IMG/VR virus record: IMGVR_UViG_3300045391_006247
From: a virus
Length of the DNA: 64,000 bases
Strand: one strand, 5' to 3'
In this document: positions 3,980-58,624 of the stretch, one piece after another
Position numbering within the stretch: the first letter of the stretch is position 1
Layout of the letters: every line of letters starts with the position of its first letter
The notes under the pieces: model-generated
What the model was told of the DNA's origin: nothing
The model's input: only the letters and a program-made list of their open reading frames with translations
Databases searched by the model: none
Program-made: the position numbers and the translations under genes

Positions 3980-4219
3980 TTATTGCTCTAGCGCTTCAAA
4001 GTAACGATACGCAACCAGCTTGTGCTCAACTCTCCAACGGTTCAACGTACCCATTACATCAGAAAAGCGATCAGTTTCCGTGAACAATTCAACCGTCAAT
4101 TCGTGCCCAGTTGTAACATGAACCAAAGTGTAAAGCCACAAATGATTTCCTTCAGCGCCAATCGTTTCATCAGCAGGGGATGCGGGGCGATCGAGTAAGG
4201 TTGTGCGTGAACGTGCCAT
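3980..4219 (-). CDS. Hypothetical protein
   Basis: 79-aa ORF divergent from the XRE gene, plausible composition. Confidence 0.6.
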   Translation of the reverse strand: MARSRTTLLDRPASPADETIGAEGNHLWLYTLVHVTTGHELTVELFTETDRFSDVMGTLNRWRVEHKLVAYRYFEALEQ

Positions 4220-4375
4220 AATAGTTGGGTTCCTGTTTTGGGACTGAAAGGCGGTTTCTTCTTTGCCGGAGTGAACCGCCTCTCTTATTTCCTAAAGATA
4301 ACACGATACTAGTATCACGTCAACAGCTAGTCATTATCATAGTATTGTATTATCATAGGATGGTACGATAAAAGG

Positions 4376-21312: not shown

Positions 21313-22305
21313 TTAGTCAACAGCGGTCTGAATCAGATATCCAGAGTTAATCAGTCCACCTGACACCCCGGTCAAAACGGGTTGACGGTGCAGTTTAGCG
21401 CCAAAGATCCACGCATCAGCGTTGTCATCGTGATATTTCGGCTTAGCCATTGGATGACCCTGCATCACATAGGTGTATCCAGTCGCAGGGGCATAGCGAT
21501 TGATCTGCTGCGTCGTCTGATAGGTCAAGCGATTAGAACCCAAAGCCGCGGGGTTGACGTAAGACATGATGATGTCTTTACCCCAAACATCGGTGGGCGT
21601 GCCCGTGATGTCATCCGCGATCGCCATCCCCACCACAACCTTTTGAAATCCATAAATCTGAGCCAACATCTCAGGGGTGATGGATTCAGAAGAAGTGTAT
21701 TTCAGCTTGTCGCGAATCTCTGGATTCTCCTGAAGTCCAGGAAGAACAGCGGCAGGAATCTCCATCACGTTGGGGTAAACCCCGATCGCAGCTCTAACCG
21801 CTTCTTTGCCTGCACGAATAACGGCAGAAGGGGTAGATGCTGCGTTGTTGAATCGGGAAGTGCCCGACAATGCGATCTTGTTGTTTGAGGCGTAGTTTGA
21901 GGCGTTCCGCAGAAGTGCGGCTTGCTCTACTTCAAGGTTGAGTGTTAGTCCACTCATGCAAGCATCCATCGCGTATTGCGACCAGTTAATACCAATCTGC
22001 CCGGCTTCTGAAATCTGCTCATCAGGGAGGGCGTGTTCCAAAGCATCCAGAATCAAGTTAAACGCAGTGTTGCTTGTATAGCCTGTCTGAATCCGTTTCG
22101 TCGCAGCACCGGGCGATCGCCGTGAGTTATACGTCTGAAAACATGCGCGATCGAACTCAATAATTCTGCCGCCGTAGGTGACAACCTCAGCAAAGGGAAG
22201 TAGGTTCATCCCCACTAGCTCAAGCTGTTTGAAGCCTTGAGCCATCGTTGTCAGAATGGGATCAATTACTCGCGTTTCTTTTAGTGATCTTCCAGTTCCA
22301 ACCAT
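21313..22305 (-). CDS. Major capsid protein
   Basis: 330 aa, RVIDPILTTMAQGF N-terminus, position after protease and decoration genes. Confidence 0.85.
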   Translation of the reverse strand: MVGTGRSLKETRVIDPILTTMAQGFKQLELVGMNLLPFAEVVTYGGRIIEFDRACFQTYNSRRSPGAATKRIQTGYTSNTAFNLILDALEHALPDEQISEAGQIGINWSQYAMDACMSGLTLNLEVEQAALLRNASNYASNNKIALSGTSRFNNAASTPSAVIRAGKEAVRAAIGVYPNVMEIPAAVLPGLQENPEIRDKLKYTSSESITPEMLAQIYGFQKVVVGMAIADDITGTPTDVWGKDIIMSYVNPAALGSNRLTYQTTQQINRYAPATGYTYVMQGHPMAKPKYHDDNADAWIFGAKLHRQPVLTGVSGGLINSGYLIQTAVD

Positions 22306-22665: not shown

Positions 22666-24021
22666 TTAGTACACTCCTCTAGTAACAGCCGCGATCGCTT
22701 CGCTGAAATCGCAATTTTGCGCCTTTTGGTATTCCTGAGCCTTGCGAAAAGTCTTGGCAGATTCCGGATCTACGGAATAACCGGGCGGCAAAGAAATTCC
22801 GGCAACCTCTGAAAAGTCAGTTGGCGCATCTTCGGGGTTGATCGGTAGGCGTCGATCAGTCCACAAAGGTTTTCTGTTTGCCAACTTTGCCTCATATTTA
22901 GCGCGAGGGGTAAGCTGCCCCTCTTCGCCGTAGTCTGCGGTCGTGGTGTTATCCAAGGACAAGATGAATCGAATTTCGTCATCCTTCTCAACCAAATCAA
23001 TCTTGTGATCTCTGACCAACGTTTCACAAAACGCAGAAACGCGATCGGTTTCACGTTGCAGCTGAACATCTTTGTTCTGCTGAAGCAGGAATTGCACGCT
23101 TGCTTTTAGTTGCTCGTTTTCAGCTTTCAGTTCGCTGTATTGAGCTGTTGACACTTCGTCTGTCACAGGGGTTGTATCCTCTTGCTCTTGATAATCGGGC
23201 ATAGACTTTTGCTCCAGTTGGTCAATTCGTTGGGCTAGCATGGCAACCATGTCAGGAGTTACGTCCGGTTGCCAAGGTTGAGACGCGATCGCATTCAATT
23301 GATCGAGGACGAATGAGGGGTAAAGCTTGTCGGCTTCTTCAACGCCTTTTTCCTCGATTAAGCGATCGCGACTACGGCTATAAAAATCGCGGAATAAAGA
23401 AGCCAGTTGCGGTGAATCACCCCCAAAGCTGGCAGCAGTAGCGCTAACTGATTGCAATGCGGCGTAAAGTTTCGCCCCTAGCTTTGCCTGCTCGATCGTT
23501 TCTTCGTCAGCATCGAGGGCAAAATCAACAGTCCCCTCTTGCTCTTCGGCGTAGCAGGGGAATTCTGCCAGCGGTTCAGTGAAGGCGAGGTTCATCCCCT
23601 TGACTGCGGGAGGGTCAACCCCTAATCCAGAAATGTGGCGCAGTGCCAACTTGCCAGGATAGGGATTGTGGGGGGAACCAGGGAGATAGAAACTAGACGA
23701 CAATCCGAGAATGTTGCCGTTCTTAACCCACTCCTGGAATTGGGGCGATATCTTCTTAAAGCCTGCCAACAACCGATCGCCCACCCGTTTCAGCTTGTCG
23801 GGATAGCCGTAAGCCAGTTGAGACTTGTGCAAATCTGCATCAGAATATCCCGCAGTCGAGTGGGCGGGGTAACTGACAATTAGGGGAGCTTTGAAGTGAT
23901 CGGGATTGTACGTACTTACAGCCTGATCTAGCTCGTCTGTCGCGTAATTACGGGATATTCCATTAGAAGAAGTCCTCGCTCCTCCAACGAAACACTCAAG
24001 CCATTTGAGGTCTTCTGGCAC
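22666..24021 (-). CDS. Mu gpI-like prohead protease/scaffold
   Basis: APLIVS..H, LAYG, SSSFY, LRHISGLGVDPPAVKGM motifs plus acidic coiled-coil scaffold tail. Confidence 0.85.
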   Translation of the reverse strand: MPEDLKWLECFVGGARTSSNGISRNYATDELDQAVSTYNPDHFKAPLIVSYPAHSTAGYSDADLHKSQLAYGYPDKLKRVGDRLLAGFKKISPQFQEWVKNGNILGLSSSFYLPGSPHNPYPGKLALRHISGLGVDPPAVKGMNLAFTEPLAEFPCYAEEQEGTVDFALDADEETIEQAKLGAKLYAALQSVSATAASFGGDSPQLASLFRDFYSRSRDRLIEEKGVEEADKLYPSFVLDQLNAIASQPWQPDVTPDMVAMLAQRIDQLEQKSMPDYQEQEDTTPVTDEVSTAQYSELKAENEQLKASVQFLLQQNKDVQLQRETDRVSAFCETLVRDHKIDLVEKDDEIRFILSLDNTTTADYGEEGQLTPRAKYEAKLANRKPLWTDRRLPINPEDAPTDFSEVAGISLPPGYSVDPESAKTFRKAQEYQKAQNCDFSEAIAAVTRGVY

Positions 24022-28083: not shown

Positions 28084-29733
28084 TCATTTCCCTCCCTTTT
28101 TAGACGGCGCAGGACCAAAGCCTCGCTTATTGGGGTTATAGCCGGAATGCTCTCCGTTCGGACCCGATCGCACCCAGTCACCCCTCTCTGCGATTTTGCG
28201 CTCTTCCTCGGTCAACGCCCGCACTTTTACAAGCTTTGTTCCGCCGCGTTTCAGTTTAGCTCTAGCCTCCTCAACCGATCGCGCAATGATACCCGTCCTC
28301 CGATGTTCGAAAAAATAAAGTTTCCAGTCCGGCTCGCTCAGTGTAGTGACGTCTTGGGGCGTGTCCGTGGGAGCGGGTTCCGCAGCGGGAAGGGTGAACG
28401 CATCTCCGTAAACTTCTGAAATATATTCCTGAGTTACGGAAAGTCCGATCGTGTTTATCAACACAACATCAGTTTGAACGCGTTGATTCCGCAGCTCTTC
28501 CTCGGCTTGCAATTGCTCAATCTTGCGTCTTTCTGCAAAAGTCTCACGGCGGATCTTAGGGGGGTTGGCTTTGGGATAATTGCGATCGGCTATCCATTGC
28601 CACAGTTGATCTGCAAGCTGCTCATCCAGGGAATTGCAGTCTGAATCGACTACATTCTCGTTGCGGTTCTCTGCCTGTTGAGTTGCAGCTGCATAAGACC
28701 CTGTACCCTTTTCAGAGTACGAACCTTCACCCCAAATCGCTCTTGTAATCTCAAGCCCTGAGGTTTCATACAACCATTTTAAGATTTCGTGTCCTCCTGA
28801 CTTGGAAGGTTCCAGAAAATTGATAGTGAAGCCTTCGCTCGTGAGTGCGTTGCCGTTGGGGGAGAATGCCCTCAACACTCGATCGAATGCGTTCAATACT
28901 TCCGCTTGGTCGGAGTCTTTCGTGTCCAGAGTATTAGGGTAAGTGCCATGCACAGGGGGAGAACCCAGCCGATCGGCTGTCAGTACTCCGCTCCTAAGGC
29001 ACTCTCGCCTAATCTCGTAGAACTTGCGAATCTGCGCCCCGAGTCCGTAGCCTTGGGGAAGTCCTTTGATAGAGCCAAAGGTGAAGGTGAAGAACCTGTT
29101 TTTAGGGCATCGTTCCCCATTGATGGGCGATCGTTTGGTCAGGAGTCGCAGTTCATAACCATTGACTTTTGCGATTTCGCTGAGATCTAAATCTTCGTCG
29201 CTGCAAACGGGGATTGTTTTGTTTTCGGGTTCAAAGTTCCGAAATACGAAACGTCGTTGCGGAACGAATTCTAATTTAGGAACTACAACGGTTTGATTTT
29301 TGACCGACTCTTGTTCTTCTCCGTCAACGTCTTTCGTAACTACGTAAAAAGCTTGTTTTTCTTCAACTTCAGCCACCGCCATAACTGAAAAGCCGAATAT
29401 CAACCCGGAATACAAAAACGAATTGCAGACCTGCTCGTAGGGGATGAGGTTATGGTCAATGATTCGTCTGGCAGTGTCTGCTGCGTCCTGGTCTATCTTT
29501 CGCCGTGTTGCTGCGTCAATTAGAACCGATCGCCCTAACAACGCCCCAACTCGCTCGCTCAGCTTGCCCCTGACTTGCGGGTCGAGCAACATCTCTTCGT
29601 ATTTGGTAAAGTCGCCACCGAAGCGATCGTACAGGTACGAGTCTTCGGGGACCGGTGCGTCGTTAAAGATGGCTGCGATCGCTTCTGGATCTGTTTGGGC
29701 AAGGCGAAGTCTAGCGTTAGTGTCTAGGGGCAT
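28084..29733 (-). CDS. Portal protein (Mu gp29/DUF935-like) with C-terminal extension
   Basis: YEEMLLDPQVRGKL..R, DRLGSPPVHGTYP, GSYAAA, DCNSLDEQLADQL patterns; follows terminase. Confidence 0.85.
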   Translation of the reverse strand: MPLDTNARLRLAQTDPEAIAAIFNDAPVPEDSYLYDRFGGDFTKYEEMLLDPQVRGKLSERVGALLGRSVLIDAATRRKIDQDAADTARRIIDHNLIPYEQVCNSFLYSGLIFGFSVMAVAEVEEKQAFYVVTKDVDGEEQESVKNQTVVVPKLEFVPQRRFVFRNFEPENKTIPVCSDEDLDLSEIAKVNGYELRLLTKRSPINGERCPKNRFFTFTFGSIKGLPQGYGLGAQIRKFYEIRRECLRSGVLTADRLGSPPVHGTYPNTLDTKDSDQAEVLNAFDRVLRAFSPNGNALTSEGFTINFLEPSKSGGHEILKWLYETSGLEITRAIWGEGSYSEKGTGSYAAATQQAENRNENVVDSDCNSLDEQLADQLWQWIADRNYPKANPPKIRRETFAERRKIEQLQAEEELRNQRVQTDVVLINTIGLSVTQEYISEVYGDAFTLPAAEPAPTDTPQDVTTLSEPDWKLYFFEHRRTGIIARSVEEARAKLKRGGTKLVKVRALTEEERKIAERGDWVRSGPNGEHSGYNPNKRGFGPAPSKKGGK

Positions 29734-29893: not shown

Positions 29894-31465
29894 CTACCAA
29901 GAGAGTCGGCTAGTCGGGTTGTTGACTGTTCCGGCAACGCTATATTTCTTCGGCTTCAGGGTGAGCGCAAATTCTAACCATGCAAACCCTGCTGCCCAAC
30001 AAGTAATAGTGTCGTCGTTCAGGTCGTCACTCTCGACGATCGCAGCTCGATTCAAGGCTGAGAAGTTTCGAGCCTCCTTGATACCAATCCAGTCGGATGG
30101 AAACACAACGTCTCCAGCCTCAACGTTTTGGGTAATGCGATCGGTGTTAACAATTTTGGACATTTGGGAGGTTCTTGTAATCTCAACGTGAAGTTGGGGC
30201 ATCTCCGCCGATATTTGCTCAGCAATGACCACCCCGCCGTTGTCTGCTTCTACTGCCAAGAAAACAGCGTTAAATCTTTTAATTAATTCCATTGACTTCG
30301 TTCTGCAATACAAAGGTTTTTTGTAGTTCTCTCTGTATTGAGCAACAAGCCTAAACGGAGCCTTTGTGATATCCCAAATCTGGCAGACCCAAAAGTTTTG
30401 CCCGCCGTAATTCGGGTCAATGCAGGAAAGGTAAGAATGTCCGGCTTCAGGGGTGGACATCCATTGCCCTGTTGCGCATTTGATAACCAGTTCTGGATCA
30501 AACAGGCTAGCGCCTTGCTTCGGCAACCCAAGATTGTGCTCTCTTTGGGCTTGAGCATCCGTCAGCTTCTTCTTTGTGCGCTGCTCCTCAACGTATTGAG
30601 GGTTTGAGCCATAAATGGGATGGGCTTTGTGGGAAATAATAACCTTGACCCATCCGCCCTTATCCTCCCAAGCGCAGAATCCAGGGATTGCAGGCAATGG
30701 GACTTTGGTTTGATTGAAAAATCCACCAGAACGAGCGACCGCCAGTAGTTCTTCTAAGTCGATCGCATCAGGATTATCTGCCAGCCCCCTCTCAAAAAAC
30801 CAACTATCAAGCCCTTCTTTTGGGATGGTGGAGACAATAAACGTCCGAGCGTCGGCTCCAACCATTTCTTGGGATGGGGTAGAAGCTGCATACATCTCGT
30901 CAATGATGGGGACAAAACCCGCCTCATCAAACATTAAATCCCAAACAGACTCTAGTCCGCGAGTTGCGTTTGTGGTGGATGGGCGAAAGTTCATCTCACC
31001 CCCGTCTTTGGGCTTACGAACACTGATCGAGTCAACTTCCCATTCAAAATCAGGAATTTGGGAGGGCATTCGCTCTATTCGTTTGGAAACCTTATGAGCA
31101 TCCTTTTCGGTAATGCTGAACACTGCGCCAGCATAGGCAGGGTTGAGCTTTGCTCTAAACAGCATCCAACAGATCAACAATTCAGTTAAACCCAACTGCC
31201 GATCTTTAACGAGCCACAGTCCTGGATAAACAGCAATTAGACGAGCGATCGCTTCTTGGTAGTCAAATAGTGGGTCAAAGCGGATTAAGCGCGTTCCTGA
31301 GCGAATAACACACTGGTTAGCAAAAGCCTTGAACTCTTCGATCGTGGGGATTGGGTTGACTGTTGGGGTGTTTTTTGGTAATCCAGCCGTTTGCGCGATC
31401 GCGTTTAACGACTGCCTCTTGAGTTCTCGATCGACAAAGCTAATTGCCTGATTTCTCTTCGCCAT
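29894..31465 (-). CDS. Terminase large subunit
   Basis: KDRQLGLT Walker A-like, LMFDEAG Walker B, CIDPN and terminal DD nuclease residues. Confidence 0.9.
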   Translation of the reverse strand: MAKRNQAISFVDRELKRQSLNAIAQTAGLPKNTPTVNPIPTIEEFKAFANQCVIRSGTRLIRFDPLFDYQEAIARLIAVYPGLWLVKDRQLGLTELLICWMLFRAKLNPAYAGAVFSITEKDAHKVSKRIERMPSQIPDFEWEVDSISVRKPKDGGEMNFRPSTTNATRGLESVWDLMFDEAGFVPIIDEMYAASTPSQEMVGADARTFIVSTIPKEGLDSWFFERGLADNPDAIDLEELLAVARSGGFFNQTKVPLPAIPGFCAWEDKGGWVKVIISHKAHPIYGSNPQYVEEQRTKKKLTDAQAQREHNLGLPKQGASLFDPELVIKCATGQWMSTPEAGHSYLSCIDPNYGGQNFWVCQIWDITKAPFRLVAQYRENYKKPLYCRTKSMELIKRFNAVFLAVEADNGGVVIAEQISAEMPQLHVEITRTSQMSKIVNTDRITQNVEAGDVVFPSDWIGIKEARNFSALNRAAIVESDDLNDDTITCWAAGFAWLEFALTLKPKKYSVAGTVNNPTSRLSW

Positions 31466-32486: not shown

Positions 32487-33371
32487 GTGCGATCGCTAAA
32501 ATGGGGACATCTTCGCTTCATTCCCCTAATGCCAAAACTCATCGCAAAGCAATCGACTTGGCTTAAATCGAAAATTCTTGGAGCCACAGATCTCGCAGTA
32601 AGTGAAAAAGTGTTTGTCCCTGCCGGGAAGGAGTACTTCGTCAATTCATGGAGTCCCGATCGCAACCAACACGATCGTTTCGTCTTAGCATCTTCTGTGC
32701 CCGCAGCAGACGGCAAAACAAAGCTCACCACCGTTTATGGGTATGCGCCTCATTTCAAGGTTGAAGGGGAAGATACGCCCCAATTAATTAAGCTGCCTGT
32801 CAAGTACATGTCCCAGTTAGACAATGACACATCAATCTTTGGAGCAGGATGGCGGCAGTGTTGCACTACCAGTCATTGCATGATGGCTGATTACCTACTG
32901 GCAGGGGAAATCTCCGTCCGATCGAAACTAAGGGGTTTCACTGAGCCAGAATCGCTGTATATGCGATCGGTTGGCAAGTATGGGGATACAACCGATGTGC
33001 ATGCCCAGGTGAGGGCGTTAAGTGACTTTGGAATTGAATGTTATTTCAGTCAAACATTGTCGGCAAAAGATTTGTTGAGGGCGTTAGAGCTGGGAATTGC
33101 TGTGCCGATTGGGGTAAGGTACAAGTCAGGAGGTCACTGGGTTGTTGTTGTGGGGCATGATCCAGTTAAAAGATGCTGGTACATTCACGACCCATATGGG
33201 GCACGACATGCAGCTTCTGACAGCTATGACATTGGCGTTGGTGGAGCTTTCGACATTTATAGTTACGACGTAATGCAAAGCGTGTTTTTTGATATGGGCA
33301 GTGAAGCAGGATGGGGAACGATCGCAACTTCGGTCAAGGGAGAACCAACAGGGGTGATGGCAGGGATGTAA
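32487..33371 (+). CDS. C39-like cysteine peptidase, probable endolysin
   Basis: QCCTTS (Cys), GHWVVVVG (His), HDPYG (Asp); N-terminal SH3-like cell-wall-binding-type segment. Confidence 0.75.
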   Translation: MRSLKWGHLRFIPLMPKLIAKQSTWLKSKILGATDLAVSEKVFVPAGKEYFVNSWSPDRNQHDRFVLASSVPAADGKTKLTTVYGYAPHFKVEGEDTPQLIKLPVKYMSQLDNDTSIFGAGWRQCCTTSHCMMADYLLAGEISVRSKLRGFTEPESLYMRSVGKYGDTTDVHAQVRALSDFGIECYFSQTLSAKDLLRALELGIAVPIGVRYKSGGHWVVVVGHDPVKRCWYIHDPYGARHAASDSYDIGVGGAFDIYSYDVMQSVFFDMGSEAGWGTIATSVKGEPTGVMAGM

Positions 33372-33429: not shown

Positions 33430-34125
33430 TTAGCAGTCTTGAAGCTCTGTGTACCGATTGTAGACGCGTTCTTCTAATGGAACGTACTTAGTTAACTGCT
33501 CAAACATTTCATTGTTTATCTTGACAAACCGAACTCTTTTTGGAAGAGAAACGCATAATTCGGATGCGATCGCAACTCCTTCTTGCGACTGAAGGTGACT
33601 CATATACCGCTCTAGCTGTACCAATGCAGCCCTGTCAAACTTTACCCTCTTAACTTCTACCGGAATAATTTTGCCGTTTTCTTTCAAAATGAAATCCGGG
33701 CGATGTCCGCAACTGTCTGTGACTTGAGGCGTCAAACTTCCTTCTAGTCCCAACACGTCTTGATATCTTTGGATGTGAGGATACAGCTGATTTTCGTTGT
33801 AAAACTCCCTCTGAAATTGAAGTTGAATCAGCGTCCGAACACCGTGAAAAATCATTGAAGCTTCCTGCCCTCTATACAGGGACATTGCCTGATCGTATAG
33901 GTAGTGAGAATCTCTAAATCCTCCCGGATAGGTTCCCATCGCGATTCTCGCTGCCGCCTCTAGAATCGCCAAGCTTGCATCTTTGCGACTCAAGCAATCC
34001 GAGCTAGACTCCCAGTGAAAGCCTGTTAAATGCATCAAATCACGAGCACTCCAAAACTCATTACCGCGATCGTCAATTTTCCGGATAGCGTTAAAAGGGG
34101 AGTGAGACTGAGTTAAATTAGACAT
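33430..34125 (-). CDS. Bro/DinD-like N-terminal domain plus PD-(D/E)XK nuclease (NucS-like)
   Basis: SPFNAIRKIDDRGNEFWSARDLM N-terminus; RPDFIL...IPVEVKR...QLERYM; start placed at ATG 34125. Confidence 0.75.
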   Translation of the reverse strand: MSNLTQSHSPFNAIRKIDDRGNEFWSARDLMHLTGFHWESSSDCLSRKDASLAILEAAARIAMGTYPGGFRDSHYLYDQAMSLYRGQEASMIFHGVRTLIQLQFQREFYNENQLYPHIQRYQDVLGLEGSLTPQVTDSCGHRPDFILKENGKIIPVEVKRVKFDRAALVQLERYMSHLQSQEGVAIASELCVSLPKRVRFVKINNEMFEQLTKYVPLEERVYNRYTELQDC

Positions 34126-34333
34126 CTGAAGCTCCTTCAATTTCATAAAGCTCATCTAAGCTGCTGAGTTCAAAAAACTCCAGCAGCTTTTTTGCTGTGT
34201 TGCAATCAATACGGCTAACAGTGGGATGCCGATACAACATCCCAACAATGCTTGGGTTTAAGCCAGTGGCTTTAACAACCTGCGTCTGGTTCAAACCCCG
34301 ATCGTTCATCAATTTTCTCAATTTGCAAATCAT
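34118..34333 (-). CDS. XRE/Cro-C1-type HTH regulator; paralog of 4376..4600
   Basis: KLRKLM...TGLNPSIVGMLY...RID pattern. Confidence 0.85.
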   Translation of the reverse strand: MICKLRKLMNDRGLNQTQVVKATGLNPSIVGMLYRHPTVSRIDCNTAKKLLEFFELSSLDELYEIEGASDV

Positions 34334-34444
34334 CTCTTTTCCTCCGAAACCTTTCTCTATTTTAACCCGTTATCGCGATAATGCGCGATGCAAACAAAAA
34401 AGATTCCGTTAAATCGCGATCGCCCCTCACCACTATTGCCAATT

Positions 34445-34486
34445 GCGTAATTGCGCAATATCATTAAACCTATAGCGCAATTACAC
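34445..34486. promoter_or_regulatory. Paired operator
   Basis: GCGTAATTGCGC at 34445 and GCGCAATTACAC at 34475 between divergent genes. Confidence 0.7.
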
Positions 34487-35219: not shown

Positions 35220-35417
35220 CTACATCTCCTCCCAAATCCCCTGCTCGATTGCCTGACGAACGATCGCTTCTCTCAACCACTCCGATCGGTTCGGCATTGC
35301 CCTAACAACTTCATCCAAACTCTCAGGGAGTCTCACGGTCAGCGATTGCGCTGCTAGAGGCTCTTTTCCTTTTGGGGCAAACTTGCCAGTATTATCACGG
35401 GAAACATCTTCTTCCAT
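35220..35417 (-). CDS. Ribbon-helix-helix (CopG-like) regulator
   Basis: LTVRLPESLDEVVRAMPNRSEWLREAI. Confidence 0.75.
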   Translation of the reverse strand: MEEDVSRDNTGKFAPKGKEPLAAQSLTVRLPESLDEVVRAMPNRSEWLREAIVRQAIEQGIWEEM

Positions 35418-35471: not shown

Positions 35472-35774
35472 TTGAAAAAGTCAAAGGGCAGTGCATCCCG
35501 CGAAGAACAGCACCGCCCCACTCACCTGAAAGGTACTCAGATGTCTCAAGATATTACACCGACCGCTACATATTTCACAGTGATCCGCGCCACATCGATC
35601 GCTGCCATTCGCGAAATCTCAGGAGTAGACCTGATGATGTTCCCAATTAAAACCCCAGTATTCGACCTAAAAGAAACCGCGATCGAGTTTTGCAATCGCC
35701 TTAACGACCACCAGCAGCAAACAGGGCAAATTGTTTCACTGCTCGTTTCTGCGCCTCAACTAGCCACAGCTTAA
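35472..35774 (+). CDS. Hypothetical protein
   Basis: 100-aa ORF; true start may be the internal ATG (MSQDITP). Confidence 0.55.
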   Translation: MKKSKGSASREEQHRPTHLKGTQMSQDITPTATYFTVIRATSIAAIREISGVDLMMFPIKTPVFDLKETAIEFCNRLNDHQQQTGQIVSLLVSAPQLATA

Positions 35775-35850: not shown

Positions 35851-36402
35851 ATGCTATCAACGATTACCCCAGACATTGACGATCTGCTGCTACAGATCGA
35901 AGTTCTGCTTGCTGAGAACGCCCGCCTAAAACGGGATGCTTACACCGATGGACTAACCGGAATTGCTAACCGCAGAGCATTCGACACCACACTAGAACAA
36001 GAATGGAGCCGATGCAGTCGCACCCAAAGCCCGATCGCACTCCTACTCATTGATATCGATTTTTTCAAAAAGTACAACGACACCCACGGGCATGACGGAG
36101 GCGATGAGCTGCTAAGAGGTTTAGCCACAGCATGGAAAGCGATCGCCCTGCGTACATACGACTTAGTTGCTCGCTATGGGGGAGAAGAGTTTGCCGTTAT
36201 CCTCCCCAACACTGATGCGATCGGCGCGTCACGAGTGGCTGAAGAGTTTGCTAAGGCTGCTCACACCCTGAAAGTTACTGTCTCGATCGGGGTCAAAGCG
36301 ATCGTCCCTTGCGACCACTGCCCTAAATCCCTGATTCGATCGGCTGACGCGGCGTTGTATCGCTCAAAGTCAGAAGGACGCGATCGGGTCACTGTAGGGT
36401 AA
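35851..36402 (+). CDS. Diguanylate cyclase (stand-alone GGDEF domain)
   Basis: TDGLTGIANRRAF, DIDFFKKYNDTHGHDGGD, RTYD I-site, RYGGEEF active site, ADAALYRSK..GR. Confidence 0.95.
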   Translation: MLSTITPDIDDLLLQIEVLLAENARLKRDAYTDGLTGIANRRAFDTTLEQEWSRCSRTQSPIALLLIDIDFFKKYNDTHGHDGGDELLRGLATAWKAIALRTYDLVARYGGEEFAVILPNTDAIGASRVAEEFAKAAHTLKVTVSIGVKAIVPCDHCPKSLIRSADAALYRSKSEGRDRVTVG

Positions 36403-36418
36403 GGTGCGATCGGATGGT

Positions 36419-36721
36419 TTACCGCTCCGTTTGGGGCGGTTTTTTGTTGCGGATGCGTTTTAAGCTGCTAGCCTCAAATATTTCCAAAAGTTCAGGATAT
36501 TTCTCTCTACATTCTCGCCACTGTTCTAGCAATGTGAACGCTGAGTCCAACAATAAGACTTGACGTTTAACCGCTTCTGTTTCTTCTCCCCCATGCATTA
36601 GCCAATGAGAGACGGTCGATCGCGTTACCCCTAAGAGTTGAGCTAATTGCTCCTGGGTTAAGCACCACTTTTCCTTAAATGTCTTGGCACTTCCCACGAT
36701 CGCATCTCTCCCTAGCAACAT
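36419..36721 (-). CDS. XRE-family HTH regulator
   Basis: LTQEQLAQLLGVTRSTVSHW. Confidence 0.8.
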   Translation of the reverse strand: MLLGRDAIVGSAKTFKEKWCLTQEQLAQLLGVTRSTVSHWLMHGGEETEAVKRQVLLLDSAFTLLEQWRECREKYPELLEIFEASSLKRIRNKKPPQTER

Positions 36722-36826
36722 TTTTAATTCTCCGATTCAGAGCAGAAAAATACAAATAAAAATAAGCGCTTTTTTAGAGTAATTTTGAAAAATAGTTTTC
36801 AGACAGTCTCATGATAATAAATGTAG

Positions 36827-37016
36827 TCTTAACTTGAGAATTAAGCTTTTACGGCGTTTATGGCTGCAATTTGTTTTGTCTTGAAACCGTCCAAACCCTA
36901 TTAATCTCATTTGAGACTCACCTTAAGACAAGATGAACGCTATTTTAATCTCATTTTGAGATAGCTGCAACCCTTGATTTACAAAGCTTTTAACCAACTT
37001 TGTCTCAAAGTGAGAC
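36827..37016. promoter_or_regulatory. Cluster of TCTYA-N2/3-TGAGA palindromes
   Basis: Sites at 36827, 36905, 36949 and 37003 between divergent genes. Confidence 0.5.
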
Positions 37017-37094
37017 TTGACAAGACGGGTTTTGAACAAATGTCTTGACAGTTGCTCTTATTTAGCGCAATACTACTTGTATTGAAAGCAAGAA

Positions 37095-37589
37095 ATGGAG
37101 CAAAAAGCGGTGAGGTTGCAGAGCGATTTTGAGTATTACTGTCAAGTGTTAGGGCGATCGCTCTCCGTCCGTACCTGGGATAGAACGATCGCGGATCTGG
37201 ATTTAACAAGCTGCTCTTTTGTGGAGCGTCGCAAACGGTTAAAAGCACTTGCTCAAATCCGAAAGCTAAATCCAACACTGAAAGTCACCTTAGAAACAGT
37301 TGAGCGATATCAAGCGATTGAAAAGATTGCCACACTGCCAGACGGCACTAAGGGTACGGACATGTATCAAGCGGTTCTCGGACTGAGGCATCTTTCAGAG
37401 GTTCAGTTTCGGCGTTGGGTTGAATCGTCGGGCATCAAGTATGGGCGCAACTCCCAATACTCTGGAACCGAACTAAAAGCGATCGTTCAGCAGCTCATCA
37501 TCCGCTTAGTTTCCAAGCCCGAGCTTGTTTGTTTCAGCAAAAAAATGTCAAGTCAACAAAAAGGAGCCTTATTTCTGTGGACAAACTAA
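37095..37589 (+). CDS. Hypothetical, possible DNA-binding protein
   Basis: 164-aa basic ORF. Confidence 0.65.
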   Translation: MEQKAVRLQSDFEYYCQVLGRSLSVRTWDRTIADLDLTSCSFVERRKRLKALAQIRKLNPTLKVTLETVERYQAIEKIATLPDGTKGTDMYQAVLGLRHLSEVQFRRWVESSGIKYGRNSQYSGTELKAIVQQLIIRLVSKPELVCFSKKMSSQQKGALFLWTN

Positions 37590-50242: not shown

Positions 50243-50481
50243 TTAATTACGAATTAATTACGACAAAATAAAAGAACTCTGAAACGTTGTTAAATCAAGC
50301 ACTTCAGAGTTCTGCCGATCCTTTGAGAGGAAACCTCTACAACTCAAACCAAAAACCGCTAGAATCAAGCATTATCGGGTTTGTAAGCTTTGCTAGTTAA
50401 GCGTCTTACTTGTCATATAGTAGAAAAATGTAGATTTTTTTCAGAAATAGTAGAAGCTTTTTAATTACGATTTAATTACGA
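50243..50481. other. Candidate attP region with tandem arm-type repeats
   Basis: TTAATTACGA exact at 50243, 50254, 50461 and 50472 (two pairs, 11-bp period) flanking an AT-rich gap directly upstream of the integrase. Confidence 0.55.
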
Positions 50482-51572
50482 TGCCTAGAACACTTGAATC
50501 AATCAACGATCGCATTTCTGGGTCAGGGGTGAGAGTTGAGAAAAAAGGCAATAAGCTTTACCTCGTCAGCGTTTTACCTCCCCGTAGTGGAGAAGGGAAA
50601 GCTAAACAGCAGAAGATTGCACTGAAGATAAGCGATCGCACCCCATTGGAACTGGAACAAGCAGAGGGGCGAGCATTGGAGCTATTGAGCCAGAAAATTA
50701 AAGGGGAATTTAGTTGGTCGAAGTGGCGGCAGGGTAATGGTGAAGCGATCGCACAGGTGGAGAACCTTGGGACGCTGATTGAGCGATACAAACTCGATCG
50801 AACAATATCGGGCATGACTCCCGATCAATGGGCGAGGGAGTGGGAGTTCTTAAAGCGGTTGCCGATGGAGTCTCGCCCAACTAAAGAAGCGTTCCTTGAT
50901 GTGGTAGCGCGATCGGTTCCGAACACGGCAACTCGCAAGGAATATGTGACTCGGTTTAACCGGCTGATCAAATGGGCAGAGCTGGATATAGACCTATCCC
51001 CCTATCAATCGAACTACAGTGCCAGTCGCGTCAAACCTCGCCAGCTGCCCACTGATGAAATGATCGAACAGACTCGTGACTGGATTATCAGTGTCGATCG
51101 GGGGAGGATTCAGCGGCAGGCTTTAACCTGGCAATGGGTGTATGGTGTGCTCGCTGCGTATGGGCTAAGACCGCATGAAGTGATGTTCTGTCGAATTAGC
51201 TCAACCCCTCCCTATGCCTGCCATGTGACTGAAGGAAAGACAGGGAAGCGCACCGTCTACCCTTTTCATCCCCATTGGGTTGAACAGTGGAAGTTATGGG
51301 AAATGAACAAACCTAATGTGAGGTGCGATCGCGCTCATAGGAAGGTGGGGCAGTCGGTCACTGATTCGTTGAGGAGATATGGGGTTAACCTTCCCTATAA
51401 CCTAAGACACGCTTACTCATTAAGAGCACATGTAAAATACAATACCCCGCCACGAGTTGTAGCGGGGTTGATGGGGCATACTGTTGCAGTTTGGCAGAAG
51501 ACTTATTCTCGTTGGCTTAGGGATGATGACCTGCTGTCGTCTTATATGCGATCGATTAGCGGAGAGAGTTAA
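50481..51572 (+). CDS. int: Tyrosine recombinase (phage integrase)
   Basis: YGLRPHE (Arg I), KTGKR (Lys), YNLRHAY (HxxR variant), LMGH and downstream Tyr (KTYSRW). Confidence 0.92.
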   Translation: MPRTLESINDRISGSGVRVEKKGNKLYLVSVLPPRSGEGKAKQQKIALKISDRTPLELEQAEGRALELLSQKIKGEFSWSKWRQGNGEAIAQVENLGTLIERYKLDRTISGMTPDQWAREWEFLKRLPMESRPTKEAFLDVVARSVPNTATRKEYVTRFNRLIKWAELDIDLSPYQSNYSASRVKPRQLPTDEMIEQTRDWIISVDRGRIQRQALTWQWVYGVLAAYGLRPHEVMFCRISSTPPYACHVTEGKTGKRTVYPFHPHWVEQWKLWEMNKPNVRCDRAHRKVGQSVTDSLRRYGVNLPYNLRHAYSLRAHVKYNTPPRVVAGLMGHTVAVWQKTYSRWLRDDDLLSSYMRSISGES

Positions 51573-54199: not shown

Positions 54200-54442
54200 T
54201 TATCCTGGATACTCGACTAAACAATCAACGGGAACACGTTTAGTAATCCCTGCTTCGGCATTGCCGATCGTTGCTACTCTTCGCCCCTGCACTGAGCCGA
54301 TCGCTTTTACAACGTAGATGTGGGCACTCCACCCAAAATTGTTTTGCTCGCAATCGCGTTCTTCGTAGTTCATGGGGATTTGACTGAGCCAGATTTCCCA
54401 TTTTTGAAGATCTCCCGCGACTACTTTTGACCCTGGCTTCAT
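54200..54442 (-). CDS. Hypothetical protein
   Basis: 80 aa, ATGA coupling. Confidence 0.6.
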   Translation of the reverse strand: MKPGSKVVAGDLQKWEIWLSQIPMNYEERDCEQNNFGWSAHIYVVKAIGSVQGRRVATIGNAEAGITKRVPVDCLVEYPG

Positions 54443-55278
54443 CCGATCGCTCCTTCTAAAACTTGATTAAATTCAGCAGGAAACTCTCTAATCTTCAAAT
54501 CGCTCGGAAATTCATCAATGTTGCCGCCATGAGAATCTGAAATACTCCATCGATCGCCGTCCATCGTCACTGGACTTTTGCCAAGTTGTTTAACCAAACA
54601 CGGAGTTTCGTTTGCTTGACACTGATGAACGACTCCACGAATTGCAGATAAGCTAGTCTCTCTAGCTTTTGAGCCGGACTCACCACCGACAATCACCCAA
54701 TCAACAGGATTAGATAACAAATACAAGTTCACACGACCTAGCAAGGGTTCGCAAGAATAAAAAACTTTAGATCCCCGTGAACGAACATCTTGCATATAAG
54801 GCGATCGCTCGTTGTACCTTTGCTGATCTTCAATCGTGCAGCCAAACCAAACATGGGGATTTTGGCGTGCCCATTTGCTAAAAAAATCGCCAGAAATACT
54901 CTCGACCATTGAAATAATGTTTTGAGGGCGCTTGGTCAGCAGCAGCCAATCTAAATTCTTGCAGCTTTCAATAACCCGAAACGCATCTTGCCGCCATTCT
55001 ACTGAGACTTCATTATCAAAAATATCTGCCAGCGACGAACAAAACACGCGATAGCGAATTCCAAGTTTTTCAGCTTGGCGATTCCATTTAGCAGGGTGTT
55101 TCCAGTTTGCTTCACTAGTGCGCGATCGCTCTTGCCCTGCACCCCACTTTACGCGACCATAGCGATCGTCCATCATGGTTTTGGCGTAGCAATTTGCACA
55201 ACCAGGGGAGACTTGAGTACAACCAATCCACGGATTCCAAGTGTGGTCAGTCCATTGAATATCACTGTTTTCTGCCAT
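54439..55278 (-). CDS. DUF5131 / phage Gp37-Gp68 radical-SAM-like protein
   Basis: IQWTDHTWNPWIGCTQVSPGCANCYA (CxxxxxxCxxC), VFCSSLADIF, LLTKRP, WVIVGGESG. Confidence 0.92.
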   Translation of the reverse strand: MAENSDIQWTDHTWNPWIGCTQVSPGCANCYAKTMMDDRYGRVKWGAGQERSRTSEANWKHPAKWNRQAEKLGIRYRVFCSSLADIFDNEVSVEWRQDAFRVIESCKNLDWLLLTKRPQNIISMVESISGDFFSKWARQNPHVWFGCTIEDQQRYNERSPYMQDVRSRGSKVFYSCEPLLGRVNLYLLSNPVDWVIVGGESGSKARETSLSAIRGVVHQCQANETPCLVKQLGKSPVTMDGDRWSISDSHGGNIDEFPSDLKIREFPAEFNQVLEGAIG

Positions 55279-55637
55279 TATCCGATCGCCCTCCCAGCTA
55301 CATCTGTTGTATAAAACTGTTGCATTCCTACATCGCTAATCCCATCAGGCAGGCAGTTTTCTCGAGATGCAAAATACCAATCATCGCCGTCAGGGGTTTT
55401 GAGGGACGCCCAAAACCTTTCGGGCAAATCACGCTGGAGTTCAATTAATTCATCGAGCTTTTCTCCGCCGATCGCCTGAACCAAAAGCATCGAATTAAGC
55501 AAGATTGGCTCCATGAGGAACCCCATAATCAGCATCCCAATTGCCTGCGATCGGTCGTAGTACAGGGTGAGGGTGTATTGTGCGGGCTTGCCGTAACCGG
55601 GAAAAAAGCTTTTGCGCTGTCTTGATCTCTTACCCAT
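55278..55637 (-). CDS. Hypothetical protein
   Basis: Start placed at ATG 55637 (MGKRSRQ), just below the paired operator. Confidence 0.6.
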   Translation of the reverse strand: MGKRSRQRKSFFPGYGKPAQYTLTLYYDRSQAIGMLIMGFLMEPILLNSMLLVQAIGGEKLDELIELQRDLPERFWASLKTPDGDDWYFASRENCLPDGISDVGMQQFYTTDVAGRAIG

Positions 55638-55650
55638 TAAATCTTTGATT

Positions 55651-55693
55651 GCGTAATTACACAACAATACTATCTTAAATAACGTAACTACGC
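55651..55693. promoter_or_regulatory. Paired operator
   Basis: GCGTAATTACAC at 55651 and ACGTAACTACGC at 55682. Confidence 0.7.
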
Positions 55694-56038
55694 AATAGTA
55701 GAACGCCAAGACGCCACCAAAATCCGATCGCGCTCTATCAATTCTTCGCGCCATGCCAGCAGCAGGGATACTGCCTCTTCAAACTCAGCACCGAATCGAC
55801 AAATCTTAGACTCGATCTCCCCTGTTGGCTTGTACTGCCAAGGTAAGTCGTGGTATTCGCGCCAGACTGAGCCGTAGGGAAGCCAATAGGCGATCGGGTC
55901 TAAGACGCTATGAAAGTTCTGGGTGGGGTCGTAGGGGGTAAATATGCCCTTCTGCATGTCGATACAAGTGCAGATGATGTAGGGGCGATCGGATTTTGGG
56001 GTGGGGGTGTCGAGGGTTAAGGTGAGTTGTTGGGTCAT
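55688..56038 (-). CDS. Hypothetical protein
   Basis: 116 aa, ATGA coupling. Confidence 0.6.
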   Translation of the reverse strand: MTQQLTLTLDTPTPKSDRPYIICTCIDMQKGIFTPYDPTQNFHSVLDPIAYWLPYGSVWREYHDLPWQYKPTGEIESKICRFGAEFEEAVSLLLAWREELIERDRILVASWRSTIA

Positions 56039-56226
56039 CCGATCGCCTCGCTAGTTGAAAATCTAAACAGACAGTCACCACATTCTCTGCGCCGATAAAT
56101 TGTGTTATCGCTTTTCCGATCGCGTGTTTCGAGTATGGATATCCGTTGACCGCCGCACTTAGGGCAGGGCATAACTGCGCTTAAAGATTTGCGATCGTGC
56201 CTTGGTTTTGTTCGTTGCGTTGTCAT
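56035..56226 (-). CDS. NrdR-like N-terminal zinc ribbon protein
   Basis: MPCPKCG...LETR...IYRRRECGDCLFRFSTSE. Confidence 0.8.
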   Translation of the reverse strand: MTTQRTKPRHDRKSLSAVMPCPKCGGQRISILETRDRKSDNTIYRRRECGDCLFRFSTSEAIG

Positions 56227-56435
56227 CCAATCGCCTCCAATTGTGAATGCCACCAATAAGCCGATCGCCCTTCCCGATCTAGCCTGTAGTACGGTTCTGA
56301 CTCACTCCGCATCAATTTCAAGGGGCGATTGCCGTCAAACCCTGTGTTGCCTGCCACGCAAGCCATCACTACTTCGTATTGCAGGGCGGGATTGCCTTTG
56401 AGTTGAACGCAATCGCCCGGTTGGAATGGGGTCAT
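56223..56435 (-). CDS. Hypothetical protein
   Basis: Start at ATG 56435 (MTPFQPGD). Confidence 0.6.
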   Translation of the reverse strand: MTPFQPGDCVQLKGNPALQYEVVMACVAGNTGFDGNRPLKLMRSESEPYYRLDREGRSAYWWHSQLEAIG

Positions 56436-56944
56436 GCGATCGCCTCCCCGTTTTCCATGTCGCACAACAACGAATGCGCGATTAATCCCGCATCAGCCCT
56501 GTTGTGGTTGCGTTTAACCGATCGCGGAGCCTTGTATATCAGGCTATGGCGACACTCAGGATAGAGCGCGATTAATTGCGCGATCGATGCATCTTTTGAC
56601 TCTCCTGTTAACCCTGACGATCGTTTCCACTTGGCAGCAGGGACACACTCAACGGGAATGCCGAGGGTTTGCAGGACACTAACGCACATCTGCTGATGCT
56701 TGATTAGGGATAGGACGCGCCAAACAGAGCCCTTTTGAATATCTCCCCACCAAATCGTTTGGTCTTCTATGCGACCAATACAGGACAAGTGCAGGAAGGG
56801 AGAAACGATCGCGGATAATGATTTCTCTTCATTGAGTCCGGGTAGGTCTTGGATTGCGATCGCGCCATCAGGGGTGATAATCGCGATCGCGCCTTTGGAG
56901 TTTTCGGCTACGCCTGGGTCGATGCCGATGATGACTGGCTTCAT
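56432..56944 (-). CDS. RuvC-like Holliday junction resolvase
   Basis: IIGIDPG, IED, VPAAKWK, RADAGLIA acidic motifs. Confidence 0.8.
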   Translation of the reverse strand: MKPVIIGIDPGVAENSKGAIAIITPDGAIAIQDLPGLNEEKSLSAIVSPFLHLSCIGRIEDQTIWWGDIQKGSVWRVLSLIKHQQMCVSVLQTLGIPVECVPAAKWKRSSGLTGESKDASIAQLIALYPECRHSLIYKAPRSVKRNHNRADAGLIAHSLLCDMENGEAIA

Positions 56945-57222
56945 TTCACCGCCTCAATCAAACTTTGCGCCATCCGATCGCCCTTTGCTGTCTGCTCGTA
57001 GTATCCAGGTGTGGGATGAATCCAAATCAAGCCGTACTTTCGCAGGGATTGAACAGCTTTAATAACGCGATCGGGGGAAATCATCCCTTCTCGGATTGCC
57101 CCGAGGATCATTGACTCGTCGGAGTTGGGATTAGCGCCGATCGCGAGTAAGACTAGGGCTTCGTCTAGGGTGAGCTGTGGGGTGAGGATGCCTAAAGCTT
57201 CGAGAAATTTCTTGAATATCAT
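56941..57222 (-). CDS. Winged-helix-like hypothetical protein
   Basis: 93 aa, ATGA coupling. Confidence 0.6.
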   Translation of the reverse strand: MIFKKFLEALGILTPQLTLDEALVLLAIGANPNSDESMILGAIREGMISPDRVIKAVQSLRKYGLIWIHPTPGYYEQTAKGDRMAQSLIEAVK

Positions 57223-58223
57223 GATGCTACTCCTGCGATCGCTTTTGCTAAATTACACGGGACACCATTGCCAATTATTTTTGATGCAAGTTTTGAGTTG
57301 TTGGGCAGTTCGTACCAGTCGGGCAGGGTTTGCAATCTAGCCAAGCATCGAGCATTCAGCGCTACTATTCGCCCTTCGTCCCAAGCTCTGACAGGTTTTT
57401 TATTCTGACTTGCTTTAAGAGTGAAGCAAGGTTCTTGACGATCGCGGATCGTCACGGATGATCCGCGATCGTTCGCAGTGCCATCAACCAAAAATGCTCG
57501 CCTTGGTGCAATTGATGTGCTGACCGTAAACGAAGGACTACCACCTACCCGGTAGTTAAGCCCTCCTTTTTCAAGCGATCGAGCGTTTTGCCCATCAACT
57601 AAAATTGACGAATAAACTTCCGGCATTAAATCAAGTTGCCACTGGGCAAAACTTGATTCTGGCAATAAAGGAATTAAATCCTCGATCGACTCATACCATC
57701 CCTGCCATTTTGTTGACTCCGACAATGGCGCAGGGAAGCCACCTAAAACCGCTCGTAAAATCAATCGCTTGCGGTTCTGGGGAACGCCATAGTCAGCAGC
57801 GTCTAGGATGTCTACGTTGCACCAATAACCCAAACCCCAAAGGGTATCCACAATCTTTCGAAATGACCAGAAAACACGGTATCCGGCAACGTTCTCAAGG
57901 GTAAAAGATTTGGGCTTGAAGCACTCGATCGCCTCGCAACAGGAAAGGGAGATCGCTTTATCTAGTTCACCTTCACCACCTTTTGAGTTGGCGATAGAAG
58001 CATTCTGACAGGGTGGAGAAATGTGCAAGTGGTCTGGGCGTTCCGCGTTATGCCAATTGAATCCGATCGCAGAGTCCACGTAGACTTTGTGCTTGAGATT
58101 GGCAGATGCAACTTCGGCGATTGACGGTTCTATTTCAATCCCCCAAATGGGATTAAGTCCAGCAGACTGAAACCCAATATCTGCAAGTCCTCCACCAGTG
58201 CAAATTGAAGCAAAAGTTTTCAC
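57219..58223 (-). CDS. DNA cytosine-5 methyltransferase
   Basis: FASICTGGG (motif I variant), SPPCQ, LENV, DAADYGVPQNRKR, RLQTLPD, IGNGVP; GTG start 58223. Confidence 0.92.
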   Translation of the reverse strand: MKTFASICTGGGLADIGFQSAGLNPIWGIEIEPSIAEVASANLKHKVYVDSAIGFNWHNAERPDHLHISPPCQNASIANSKGGEGELDKAISLSCCEAIECFKPKSFTLENVAGYRVFWSFRKIVDTLWGLGYWCNVDILDAADYGVPQNRKRLILRAVLGGFPAPLSESTKWQGWYESIEDLIPLLPESSFAQWQLDLMPEVYSSILVDGQNARSLEKGGLNYRVGGSPSFTVSTSIAPRRAFLVDGTANDRGSSVTIRDRQEPCFTLKASQNKKPVRAWDEGRIVALNARCLARLQTLPDWYELPNNSKLASKIIGNGVPCNLAKAIAGVAS

Positions 58224-58567
58224 GCTGCCTTCCTCTCGCGTAGTCTTGTAAGTCCCAATCGCTGTTGTGGGGTAAGCGCTTCCCATACCTGCAACTTTTG
58301 GGCAGGGGTGAGATGGGTTAGTAAGTCCATATCTTCTACAGAAACGCTCTCTAGAATCGCGATCGCCACTGCGGTGAGGGTTTCTATCTCCGACTCGTTT
58401 AACGCGCTCTCAGAGCGATCGGGAGAGCAATCAGCGAGCATTGCAGGCGTGTTATTGGGCAATCCCATCAGAACTACCTCGCCATTCTTTTTTAATCGTC
58501 GGGTGACGGTGAAGGCTCCGTGCTGTTTATGAAAGGCGCGATCGCCCACGTTCGGAATCCAGGACAT
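58220..58567 (-). CDS. Hypothetical protein
   Basis: 115 aa, first gene after the paired operator at 58583. Confidence 0.65.
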   Translation of the reverse strand: MSWIPNVGDRAFHKQHGAFTVTRRLKKNGEVVLMGLPNNTPAMLADCSPDRSESALNESEIETLTAVAIAILESVSVEDMDLLTHLTPAQKLQVWEALTPQQRLGLTRLRERKAA

Positions 58568-58582
58568 AAATCATTCCTTGTT

Positions 58583-58624
58583 GCGTAACTACGTAATATT
58601 GTAGCAACAATCGCGTAAGTACGT
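58583..58624. promoter_or_regulatory. Paired operator
   Basis: GCGTAACTACGT at 58583 and GCGTAAGTACGT at 58613. Confidence 0.7.

Follow-up and report, generated by a model that had tools for sequence, protein, structure and literature searches.

A tailed, probably temperate phage of cyanobacteria encodes a stand-alone and apparently complete diguanylate cyclase of 183 amino acids (35851..36402 on the plus strand, stop codon included), which is among the simplest natural forms of this enzyme imaginable: a catalytic domain with a feedback site, preceded by a predicted zipper. The gene lies in a window of 64,000 nucleotides (the whole stretch of DNA that was analyzed), corresponding to bases 4961-68960 of a 69,840-bp IMG/VR virus record. 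We favor, with somewhat better than even confidence, the reading that this minimal cyclase, dimerized through its zipper and limited by feedback, is phage cargo that raises the c-di-GMP level of the host and acts via host receptors; we infer enzyme activity, a host phenotype and a benefit to the phage.

The assignment draws on the list of open reading frames (ORFs), matches to two domain profiles and an AlphaFold2 model. The Pfam GGDEF profile (PF00990) matches residues 30-179 over its entire length (positions 1-161 of 161) with an E-value of 6.2e-43 and 146.8 bits against a cut-off of 23.8, and the NCBIfam profile TIGR00254 matches with an E-value of 4.8e-47 and 159.8 bits against a cut-off of 37.4. 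An AAGGA Shine-Dalgarno-like motif is located 7 nt ahead of the ATG, and the reading frame measures 199 amino acids from stop to stop. Since this frame holds just 199 codons, there is no hidden N-terminal part of the cyclase upstream, and the protein contains neither a second domain nor a sensor. The active-site motif GGEEF occupies residues 110-114 (36178..36192, plus strand) in the sequence and in the clade alignment, and the RxxD feedback site (I site) is present as RTYD at residues 101-104 (36151..36162, plus strand), aligned with the RSSD of WspR (R242-D245). The order RTYD, LVARY, GGEEF leaves a gap of five residues between the two motifs, the canonical spacing of a feedback site. A first-pass annotation made from the letters had described a complete GGEEF enzyme with an RxxD inhibitory site and no sensor domain, and the full profile match, the motif spacing and the short frame all agree with that description.

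Conservation in the clade of related short proteins, assessed in an alignment of 11 sequences, points to the same conclusion. Invariant in this alignment are D68, D70, K73, N76, D85, G110, G111, E113, F114, K173 and R177, and E112 is nearly so (D in the relative P0003). As known from PleD and WspR, D68 and D70 are metal-binding positions, N76 and D85 specify guanine, and K173 and R177 bind phosphate; we take N76 and D85 to be the equivalents of PleD N335 and D344, and the invariant K73 is also near the active site. Every catalytic residue is thus present, and the cyclase appears from its sequence to be catalytically competent. In Hypr GGDEF enzymes, which produce cGAMP, the guanine-specifying Asp (the PleD D344 position) is replaced by Ser or Thr; D85 is retained here, so the cGAMP-making Hypr variant was ruled out. 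Both residues of the primary feedback site, R101 and D104, are invariant in the 11 sequences, as is R57, which aligns with WspR R198, presumably the arginine of the secondary I site; the invariance of all three suggests that product inhibition is under selection. One part of the domain departs from the solved cyclases: about 11 residues that form a beta-hairpin after helix 3 in WspR are absent, and in the AlphaFold2 model helix 3 (residues 123-138) runs nearly straight into the strand at residues 144-151. The deletion is common to most of the clade and would therefore be old and tolerated.

The AlphaFold2 model of the cyclase (pLDDT 93.6, pTM 0.85) consists of one long helix at residues 9-31 (35875..35943, plus strand), the remainder adopting the GGDEF fold. 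The helix, which includes the segment DDLLLQIEVLLAENARLKRD (residues 10-29) quoted in the first-pass annotation as a short coiled coil, the only extra part of the protein and its potential dimerizer, has a heptad pattern with I9, L12, I16, L19, N23, L26 and A30 at the a and d positions, of which L12, L26 and A30 are conserved in the clade. N23 places an asparagine at a core position of the zipper, as in GCN4. The suggestion that this helix dimerizes was borne out at the level of prediction: two copies modeled together scored an ipSAE of 0.50, while the best of three controls scored 0.00, a pass that may partly reflect memory of structures, since similar solved complexes exist, and that is no proof. 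In the calibration, 20 of 30 proteins whose solved structures are pairs of one chain attained this ipSAE, as did 1 of 23 whose solved structures are single chains. Three homodimer runs agreed in at least 96% of contacts, with a partner pLDDT of at least 86. The predicted interface comprises residues 7-31 together with residues 110-111, in a parallel, in-register zipper with self-contacts 12:12, 16:16, 19:19, 23:23 and 26:26, and the GG loops (residues 110-111) of the two copies face each other. The best structural matches are 3i5c, an engineered fusion of the GCN4 zipper to the WspR GGDEF domain (TM 0.83), and 6ttr, a coiled-coil-GGDEF fragment of Caulobacter DgcB (TM 0.89). The N-terminal helix is thus predicted to zip two copies of the cyclase into a parallel dimer.

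The virus record is nearly complete (CheckV completeness 99%); neither terminal repeats nor host flanks were seen at its ends, both of which lie in or beside phage-type genes. Between 12.7 and 31.5 kb the minus strand carries genes for terminase, portal, protease, head and tail-fiber-like proteins, among which homology searches identified the large terminase (29894-31465), a Mu-type portal (28084-29733), a head protease (22666-24021) and the major head protein (21313-22305), all on the minus strand. An endolysin-like C39 protein is encoded at 32487-33371 and a VapE/DUF3854 primase at 58624-61341, and the far end of the window also contains a RecD-like helicase, a C5 methylase and a DUF5131 protein. 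An XisA/XisC-like tyrosine recombinase encoded at 50481..51572 (plus strand) is a candidate integrase: in BLASTP it matches the XisAC_2nd protein of a related element, L014, with an E-value of 1e-31, and it receives a protein Atlas feature score of 0.99 and a TM of 0.72 to XisAC integrase clusters. The canonical integrase family PF00589 has no match in the record, this ORF has no Pfam or NCBIfam match, and no integration junction is visible in the record; the XisA-like recombinase hints that the virus is likely temperate. The HIP1 octamer GCGATCGC, which is characteristic of many cyanobacterial genomes, is present in 86 copies where 1.25 would be expected, and on this ground the host is taken to be a cyanobacterium, probably one of the filamentous, HIP1-rich kind, with the phage itself probably tailed and temperate. 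The genomic setting is therefore as annotated at first pass, which had placed the gene among phage genes and had reasoned from the role of c-di-GMP in cyanobacteria. A single sequencing run, from a soil metagenome that may be the sample of origin, is listed with DNA of the window, and no RNA run.

We then asked the databases for relatives of the cyclase. Among 5.8 billion clustered proteins the best matches are themselves short stand-alone GGDEF proteins (183-193 amino acids, 46-60% identical), followed by multi-domain cellular cyclases with up to 54% identity; the nearest relatives measure about 183-204 amino acids. The picture was the same when 1.84 billion representatives were scanned exhaustively with HMMER and the summed scores of multi-domain proteins were set aside. 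A phylogeny against cellular cyclases, proposed at first pass, gave an answer in two parts. When 96 sequences were analyzed at full length, a single branch set the 12 short proteins apart from the rest (SH-aLRT 97). In a domain-only tree, from which the columns of the helix and the deletion had been removed and to which two other short viral proteins had been added, a branch of the best tree still separates the 12, together with one added protein, from the rest, but with UFBoot 24 and SH-aLRT 90; this tree has an unresolved backbone and gives weak support for a monophyletic short clade. Counted over the tree, the distribution of short proteins requires 2 label changes, against 11.5 in shuffles. 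The short cyclases thus clearly cluster, and their sequences lend weak support to strict monophyly.

The genomic contexts of ten clade members, the window among them, were phage-like in eight cases, ambiguous in one and cellular in one. The phage-like contexts include Phormidium tenue FACHB-886 (terminase, integrase and sigma factor), a JGI contig (terminase, two recombinases, KilA-N, Rad52 and DUF3854 primase), contigs with tape-measure genes, Bro-N, NblA and an M15 lysin, contigs with KilA-N or T5orf172 together with Cro/CI-type regulators, and a 121-kb IMG/VR contig; the ambiguous gene has HNH and DUF4230 neighbors, and the remaining one (P0244) sits at a contig end beside cellular genes. 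When the window was compared with related elements by BLASTP at 1e-5, the cyclase alone was shared with two of them, and a few distant matches were found in a third; all but one of the related elements are HIP1-rich. Three genomes of possible host type contain 82 GGDEF matches in total (28 in Phormidium tenue FACHB-1050, 43 in Nodosilinea PCC 7104 and 11 in Leptolyngbya foveolarum), none of which is both short and complete, every complete one lying in an open frame of at least 278 amino acids. The best 80 matches in 185,579 species-representative genomes are at most 53% identical, the 46 of them whose frames were measured all lie in open frames of at least 247 amino acids, and no close chromosomal source of the cyclase is found among these 80. 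By comparison, seven of the best 80 GGDEF matches in IMG/VR are complete and no longer than 215 amino acids, four of the seven on HIP1-bearing contigs. The simplest reading of these sequence comparisons is that minimal cyclases of this kind form a small lineage that is exchanged between different phages of cyanobacteria and was not captured recently from a sequenced host. One close relative, 59% identical, resides in the prophage-like region of a culture-collection strain, Phormidium tenue FACHB-886.

Within the window, the cyclase gene sits in a 3-kb stretch of alternating orientations between the late and lysis block and a plus-strand block that starts at 37095. This stretch carries genes for three small, putative DNA-binding proteins: a Cro/C1-type HTH_26 regulator of 71 amino acids, 1.5 kb upstream of the cyclase (34118..34333, minus strand; Pfam HTH_26, E 1.9e-7), a protein of 65 amino acids with a weak ribbon-helix-helix match (35220..35417, minus strand; Pfam RHH_1, E 0.016, below the cut-off) and an Xre/CI-like HTH regulator of 100 amino acids (36419..36721, minus strand; Pfam Xre-like-HTH, HTH_3 and Phage_CI_repr, and PHROG repressor families). 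The ribbon-helix-helix gene is divergent from the pair formed by the cyclase and a small upstream ORF (35541..35774, plus strand; 77 amino acids from its ATG or 100 from a TTG at 35472), which belongs to no known family and is not conserved beside related cyclases, and the Xre/CI-like gene is convergent with the cyclase. A pattern scan of the window for sigma-70-like promoters returned none immediately ahead of either the cyclase or ORF 35541; the plus-strand sites in the scan are at 34436 and 37045 only. Downstream, a terminator-like hairpin with a T-run, which had also been noted at first pass, extends over 36421..36446 on the plus strand (pattern scan; RNA fold -18.6 kcal/mol). It begins 19 bases past the stop codon of the cyclase, has an 8-bp stem with 6 G-C pairs and a 4-nt loop (36421-36440) followed by TTTTTT, and overlaps the last codons at the 3' end of the convergent HTH gene; the hairpin fits the pattern of an intrinsic terminator, with a statistically unremarkable z of -1.4. 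The layout of the locus fits that of an insulated cargo unit which carries its own terminator next to a repressor-like gene, and it fits that of an early-operon gene as well.

This second fit underlies a possible though rather unlikely alternative, namely that the same active cyclase is an early lytic takeover gene, a burst of c-di-GMP after infection or induction serving to immobilize the filament and shift host physiology toward replication. In five loci (the window, L013, L017, L018 and L020) a Cro/CI-type HTH gene lies on the opposite strand at most about 2 kb upstream of the cyclase, and in lambdoid phages a place downstream of such a divergent regulator is that of the early lytic operon rather than of a gene expressed in lysogeny; this arrangement counts against a lysogeny-expressed cyclase. 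Moreover, lytic PB1-like phages raise c-di-GMP by means of YIP peptides (PMC8085984). On the other hand, the minus-strand gene at 35220-35417 lies between the cyclase and the putative early promoter (34436-34464), the terminator and the convergent repressor-like gene look more like those of an insulated cargo unit, and a feedback-limited enzyme would be better suited to setting a steady state than to producing a burst.

The crowding of the cyclase among three small regulators also raises the improbable case that c-di-GMP is read by the phage itself, for example through a neighboring small DNA-binding protein that ties lysis-lysogeny or superinfection immunity to the signal. However, the record contains no PilZ, MshEN, ComFB or EAL domain, no c-di-GMP riboswitch and no Rfam family at gathering score, and no neighbor is conserved with the cyclase: an all-against-all BLASTP of the ORFs flanking related cyclases recovered no conserved partner gene, the only relationships found being between two HTH_26 proteins and between two small ORFs in differing positions, which argues against a dedicated phage-encoded partner. 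With neither a receptor nor a degrader of c-di-GMP detected in the phage, any effect of the cyclase must go through host receptors. A role in counter-defense, or as a decoy against host cyclic-nucleotide immune signaling, has been proposed for phage GGDEF domains generally (PMC5512222) and is very improbable for this protein. PADLOC returned no match for the cyclase and no system with its neighbors, individual proteins among which matched weakly at best (Cas4-like for 33430-34155, and mad1/mad8 below significance), and N76 and D85 are canonical for c-di-GMP, unlike what would suit an immune-type messenger. Finally, the 11-residue deletion and the degenerate state of short phage GGDEF proteins of the YuA/CN1 type (AGDEF, no RxxD) might suggest a passenger, be it a captured fragment with no selected role or a non-catalytic c-di-GMP binder, but we give this scarcely any credence in view of the confident AlphaFold2 model, the presence of the deletion in most of the clade and the retention of all catalytic residues in relatives that are 46-60% identical and reside on different phage backbones.

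We therefore return to the cargo reading, in which the cyclase gene would be an accessory of a tailed, probably temperate phage whose hosts are filamentous, HIP1-rich cyanobacteria. In mechanistic terms, the leucine-zipper-like helix of about 23 residues would hold two GGDEF domains together permanently, and a permanent zipper dimer, we propose, needs no input signal; the enzyme would then make c-di-GMP until the product binds the RxxD site, giving a raised but bounded level. The first-pass annotation had called the cyclase constitutive, and this term holds in part: independence from input is plausible with a zipper and no sensor, but the output would be capped by the product, as the invariant R101, D104 and R57 suggest. 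Once expressed, the cyclase would raise host c-di-GMP and so act on host receptors. Pilus-dependent motility, the expression of minor pilins, flocculation and cellulose-dependent aggregation are under the control of c-di-GMP in cyanobacteria (PMC10124867, PMC12288463), and the expected consequences would be a decrease in type IV pilus-dependent motility and an increase in sessile or aggregated behavior. The GGDEF protein Dgc2 of Leptolyngbya boryana suppresses gliding and, surprisingly, biofilm formation (PMC10581220), so that it would be unsafe to equate more c-di-GMP with mat formation; reduced motility is the safest prediction for the effect of the cyclase. Such changes could also cut the adsorption of rival phages that depend on pili, and exclusion of such rivals by the cyclase is plausible by analogy with the Pseudomonas prophage proteins Tip, Aqs1 and PA0721.

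A bolder extension, which we think unlikely, is that a phage-adapted lineage of zipper cyclases is passed among cyanobacterial temperate phages as a diffusible "occupied" signal, a form of superinfection exclusion by second messenger in which a fixed, feedback-limited level of c-di-GMP would shut off pilus-dependent motility, DNA uptake and the adsorption of rivals, and might also be read by a phage switch. For the cargo reading itself, the relative in a culture-collection strain means that what a phage gains from setting the c-di-GMP level of its host is directly testable in mat- or crust-forming cyanobacteria. A small cyclase that lacks a sensor might also find use as a compact means of raising c-di-GMP in cyanobacteria.

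Among solved proteins, the closest relative of the cyclase is WspR (E 1e-38 to 1.5e-40, 45-46% identity, fold TM 0.83-0.91). As in WspR and the fusion of the GCN4 zipper to its GGDEF domain (PDB 3i5c, 3bre, 3i5b), one dimerizing helix directly precedes the GGDEF domain, and both motifs, RxxD and GGEEF, are retained along with the residue that aligns with R198. Natural WspR, unlike the phage protein, requires a phosphorylated receiver domain, and the GCN4 fusion is man-made; the phage protein would be its natural zipper counterpart, minus the roughly 11 residues after helix 3.

Phage-encoded GGDEF proteins are indeed rare, as the first-pass annotation had supposed, although not without precedent. 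Of 50,697 GenBank phage records, 145 match the cyclase at an E-value of at most 1e-5, all with less than 60% identity, and many of these are mislabeled bacterial contigs, fragments or gut metagenome fragments; none of the 145 is listed as a cyanophage. Seven PHROGs families match the cyclase. In the literature we found no experimental study of a phage-encoded cyclase and no link between cyanophages and c-di-GMP, which is partly a limit of the literature searched, but prior examples are on record in phages YuA and SP-15 and in polyvalent proteins (PMC10333796, PMC5512222).

The short GGDEF-only protein of Pseudomonas phage YuA is cited as a known phage example (PMC10333796). Members of the YuA group, such as the protein of 152 amino acids from Bordetella phage CN1, resemble the cyclase of the window in being small, stand-alone GGDEF-type proteins of a tailed phage; however, only residues 31-124 of the window's protein align with proteins of the CN1/YuA type (37-40% identity), and the CN1 protein has AGDEF in place of GGEEF, no RxxD arginine, no N-terminal zipper and a divergent C-terminal half. 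To judge by these motifs, the CN1 protein is probably not an ordinary cyclase. Identity of the window's protein with the YuA type was rejected, given the half-domain alignment and the different state of the motifs. Closer in kind is gp150 of Bacillus phage SP-15, a phage-encoded protein of 183 amino acids with a complete GGDEF domain, GGEEF and RxxD; another complete phage-encoded GGDEF protein is gp350 of phage G. Both differ from the window's cyclase in being only 34-37% identical to it, and SP-15 gp150 has a hydrophobic, membrane-anchor-like N-terminus and no zipper, its gene lying within a glycosyltransferase/teichoic-acid cluster of a 222-kb lytic jumbo phage of Bacillus.

In 2017 Iyer et al. 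described GGDEF domains as parts of phage polyvalent proteins (PMC5512222), and there, too, a phage deploys a c-di-GMP synthase domain against or within its host. Those modules, however, are parts of proteins thousands of residues long that are presumed to be injected, whereas the window encodes a free enzyme of 183 amino acids in a regulatory region. Identity with such a module was rejected, the ORF being stand-alone and its frame 199 amino acids from stop to stop.

Active cyclases are also carried by other mobile elements: Bordeleau et al. reportedly described DgcK and DgcL on the SXT/R391 integrating conjugative elements in 2010 (cited in PMC10333796), and Madsen et al. are said to have described plasmid-borne GGDEF genes in 2018. 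As with these, the window would represent a mobile element whose cyclase feeds the c-di-GMP pool of the host; unlike it, DgcK and DgcL belong to conjugative elements of Vibrio and other proteobacteria, bear sensors and are neither phage-encoded nor minimal.

Other phages reach what may be the same end by a different route. The Pseudomonas prophage proteins Tip, Aqs1 and PA0721 block pili and exclude rival phages (PMC11461919), and as for these proteins and the YIP peptides, the outcome proposed for the cyclase is that c-di-GMP rises or type IV pili are shut down, with motility lost and pilus-dependent phages kept out. Whereas those proteins and peptides bind host proteins (YfiN, PilB, PilC), the phage of the window would make the messenger itself. 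Cyclases of phages and mobile elements were thus already known; what is new here is the cyanobacterial host group, for which we found no earlier example, and what the gene adds is its membership in a phage-associated lineage of minimal zipper cyclases.

The cyanobacterial signature of this virus is carried by the octamer HIP1 (GCGATCGC), a hallmark of many cyanobacterial genomes, which we found in 86 copies (1.3 per kb) against 1.25 copies expected from shuffles of the window (1-64000), distributed across the entire virus. The related cyclase-bearing phage loci have HIP1 densities of 0.5-3.2 per kb. One of the related contigs, the phage-like L018 from Cyanobacteria bacterium P01_D01_bin.36, has, near its cyclase, an NblA phycobilisome-degradation gene (4132-4314) and an IS605 OrfB/Cas12f-like TnpB gene.

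Near the cyclase gene of the window, we identified two promoter-like sites that stand back to back on opposite strands within 36811-37074, one (36840-36811, minus strand) ahead of the HTH gene 36419-36721, which encodes an Xre/CI-like regulator, and the other (37045-37074, plus strand) ahead of the ORF starting at 37095, an arrangement that a repressor/early-operon switch would have. The minus-strand gene at 33430-34155 encodes a 241-aa protein whose C-terminal part resembles a Cas4-like PD-(D/E)XK nuclease and whose N-terminal part gives weak matches to the PADLOC candidates PDC-S13 and PDC-S05; because there is an overlap between this gene and the start of the gene for the HTH_26 regulator, the two may form one operon. 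The minus-strand replication block encodes, at 54439-58286, a protein of the DUF5131 family (phage Gp37/Gp68-type) as well as a C5 cytosine DNA methylase.

The sole candidate integrase of the record is a 363-aa protein (50481-51572, plus strand) for which Pfam and NCBIfam searches gave no match, and which BLAST to a relative and the protein Atlas identify as a XisA/XisC-like tyrosine recombinase. Two contigs are recorded as carrying the identical cyclase protein. The longer one has 78,528 bases compared to 69,840 for the virus record, and by virtue of its greater length this other assembly may run past the ends of the record, possibly into host DNA.

Among known phages, the annotation 'diguanylate-cyclase GGDEF domain protein' is given in YuA-like Pseudomonas and Bordetella phages, for example, to a 152-aa protein of Bordetella phage CN1 (2450-2908), whose gene lies immediately upstream of an antirestriction gene. 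The CN1 protein is degenerate, with AGDEF, no RxxD arginine and a divergent C-terminal half, and this YuA-like protein is probably not an ordinary cyclase.
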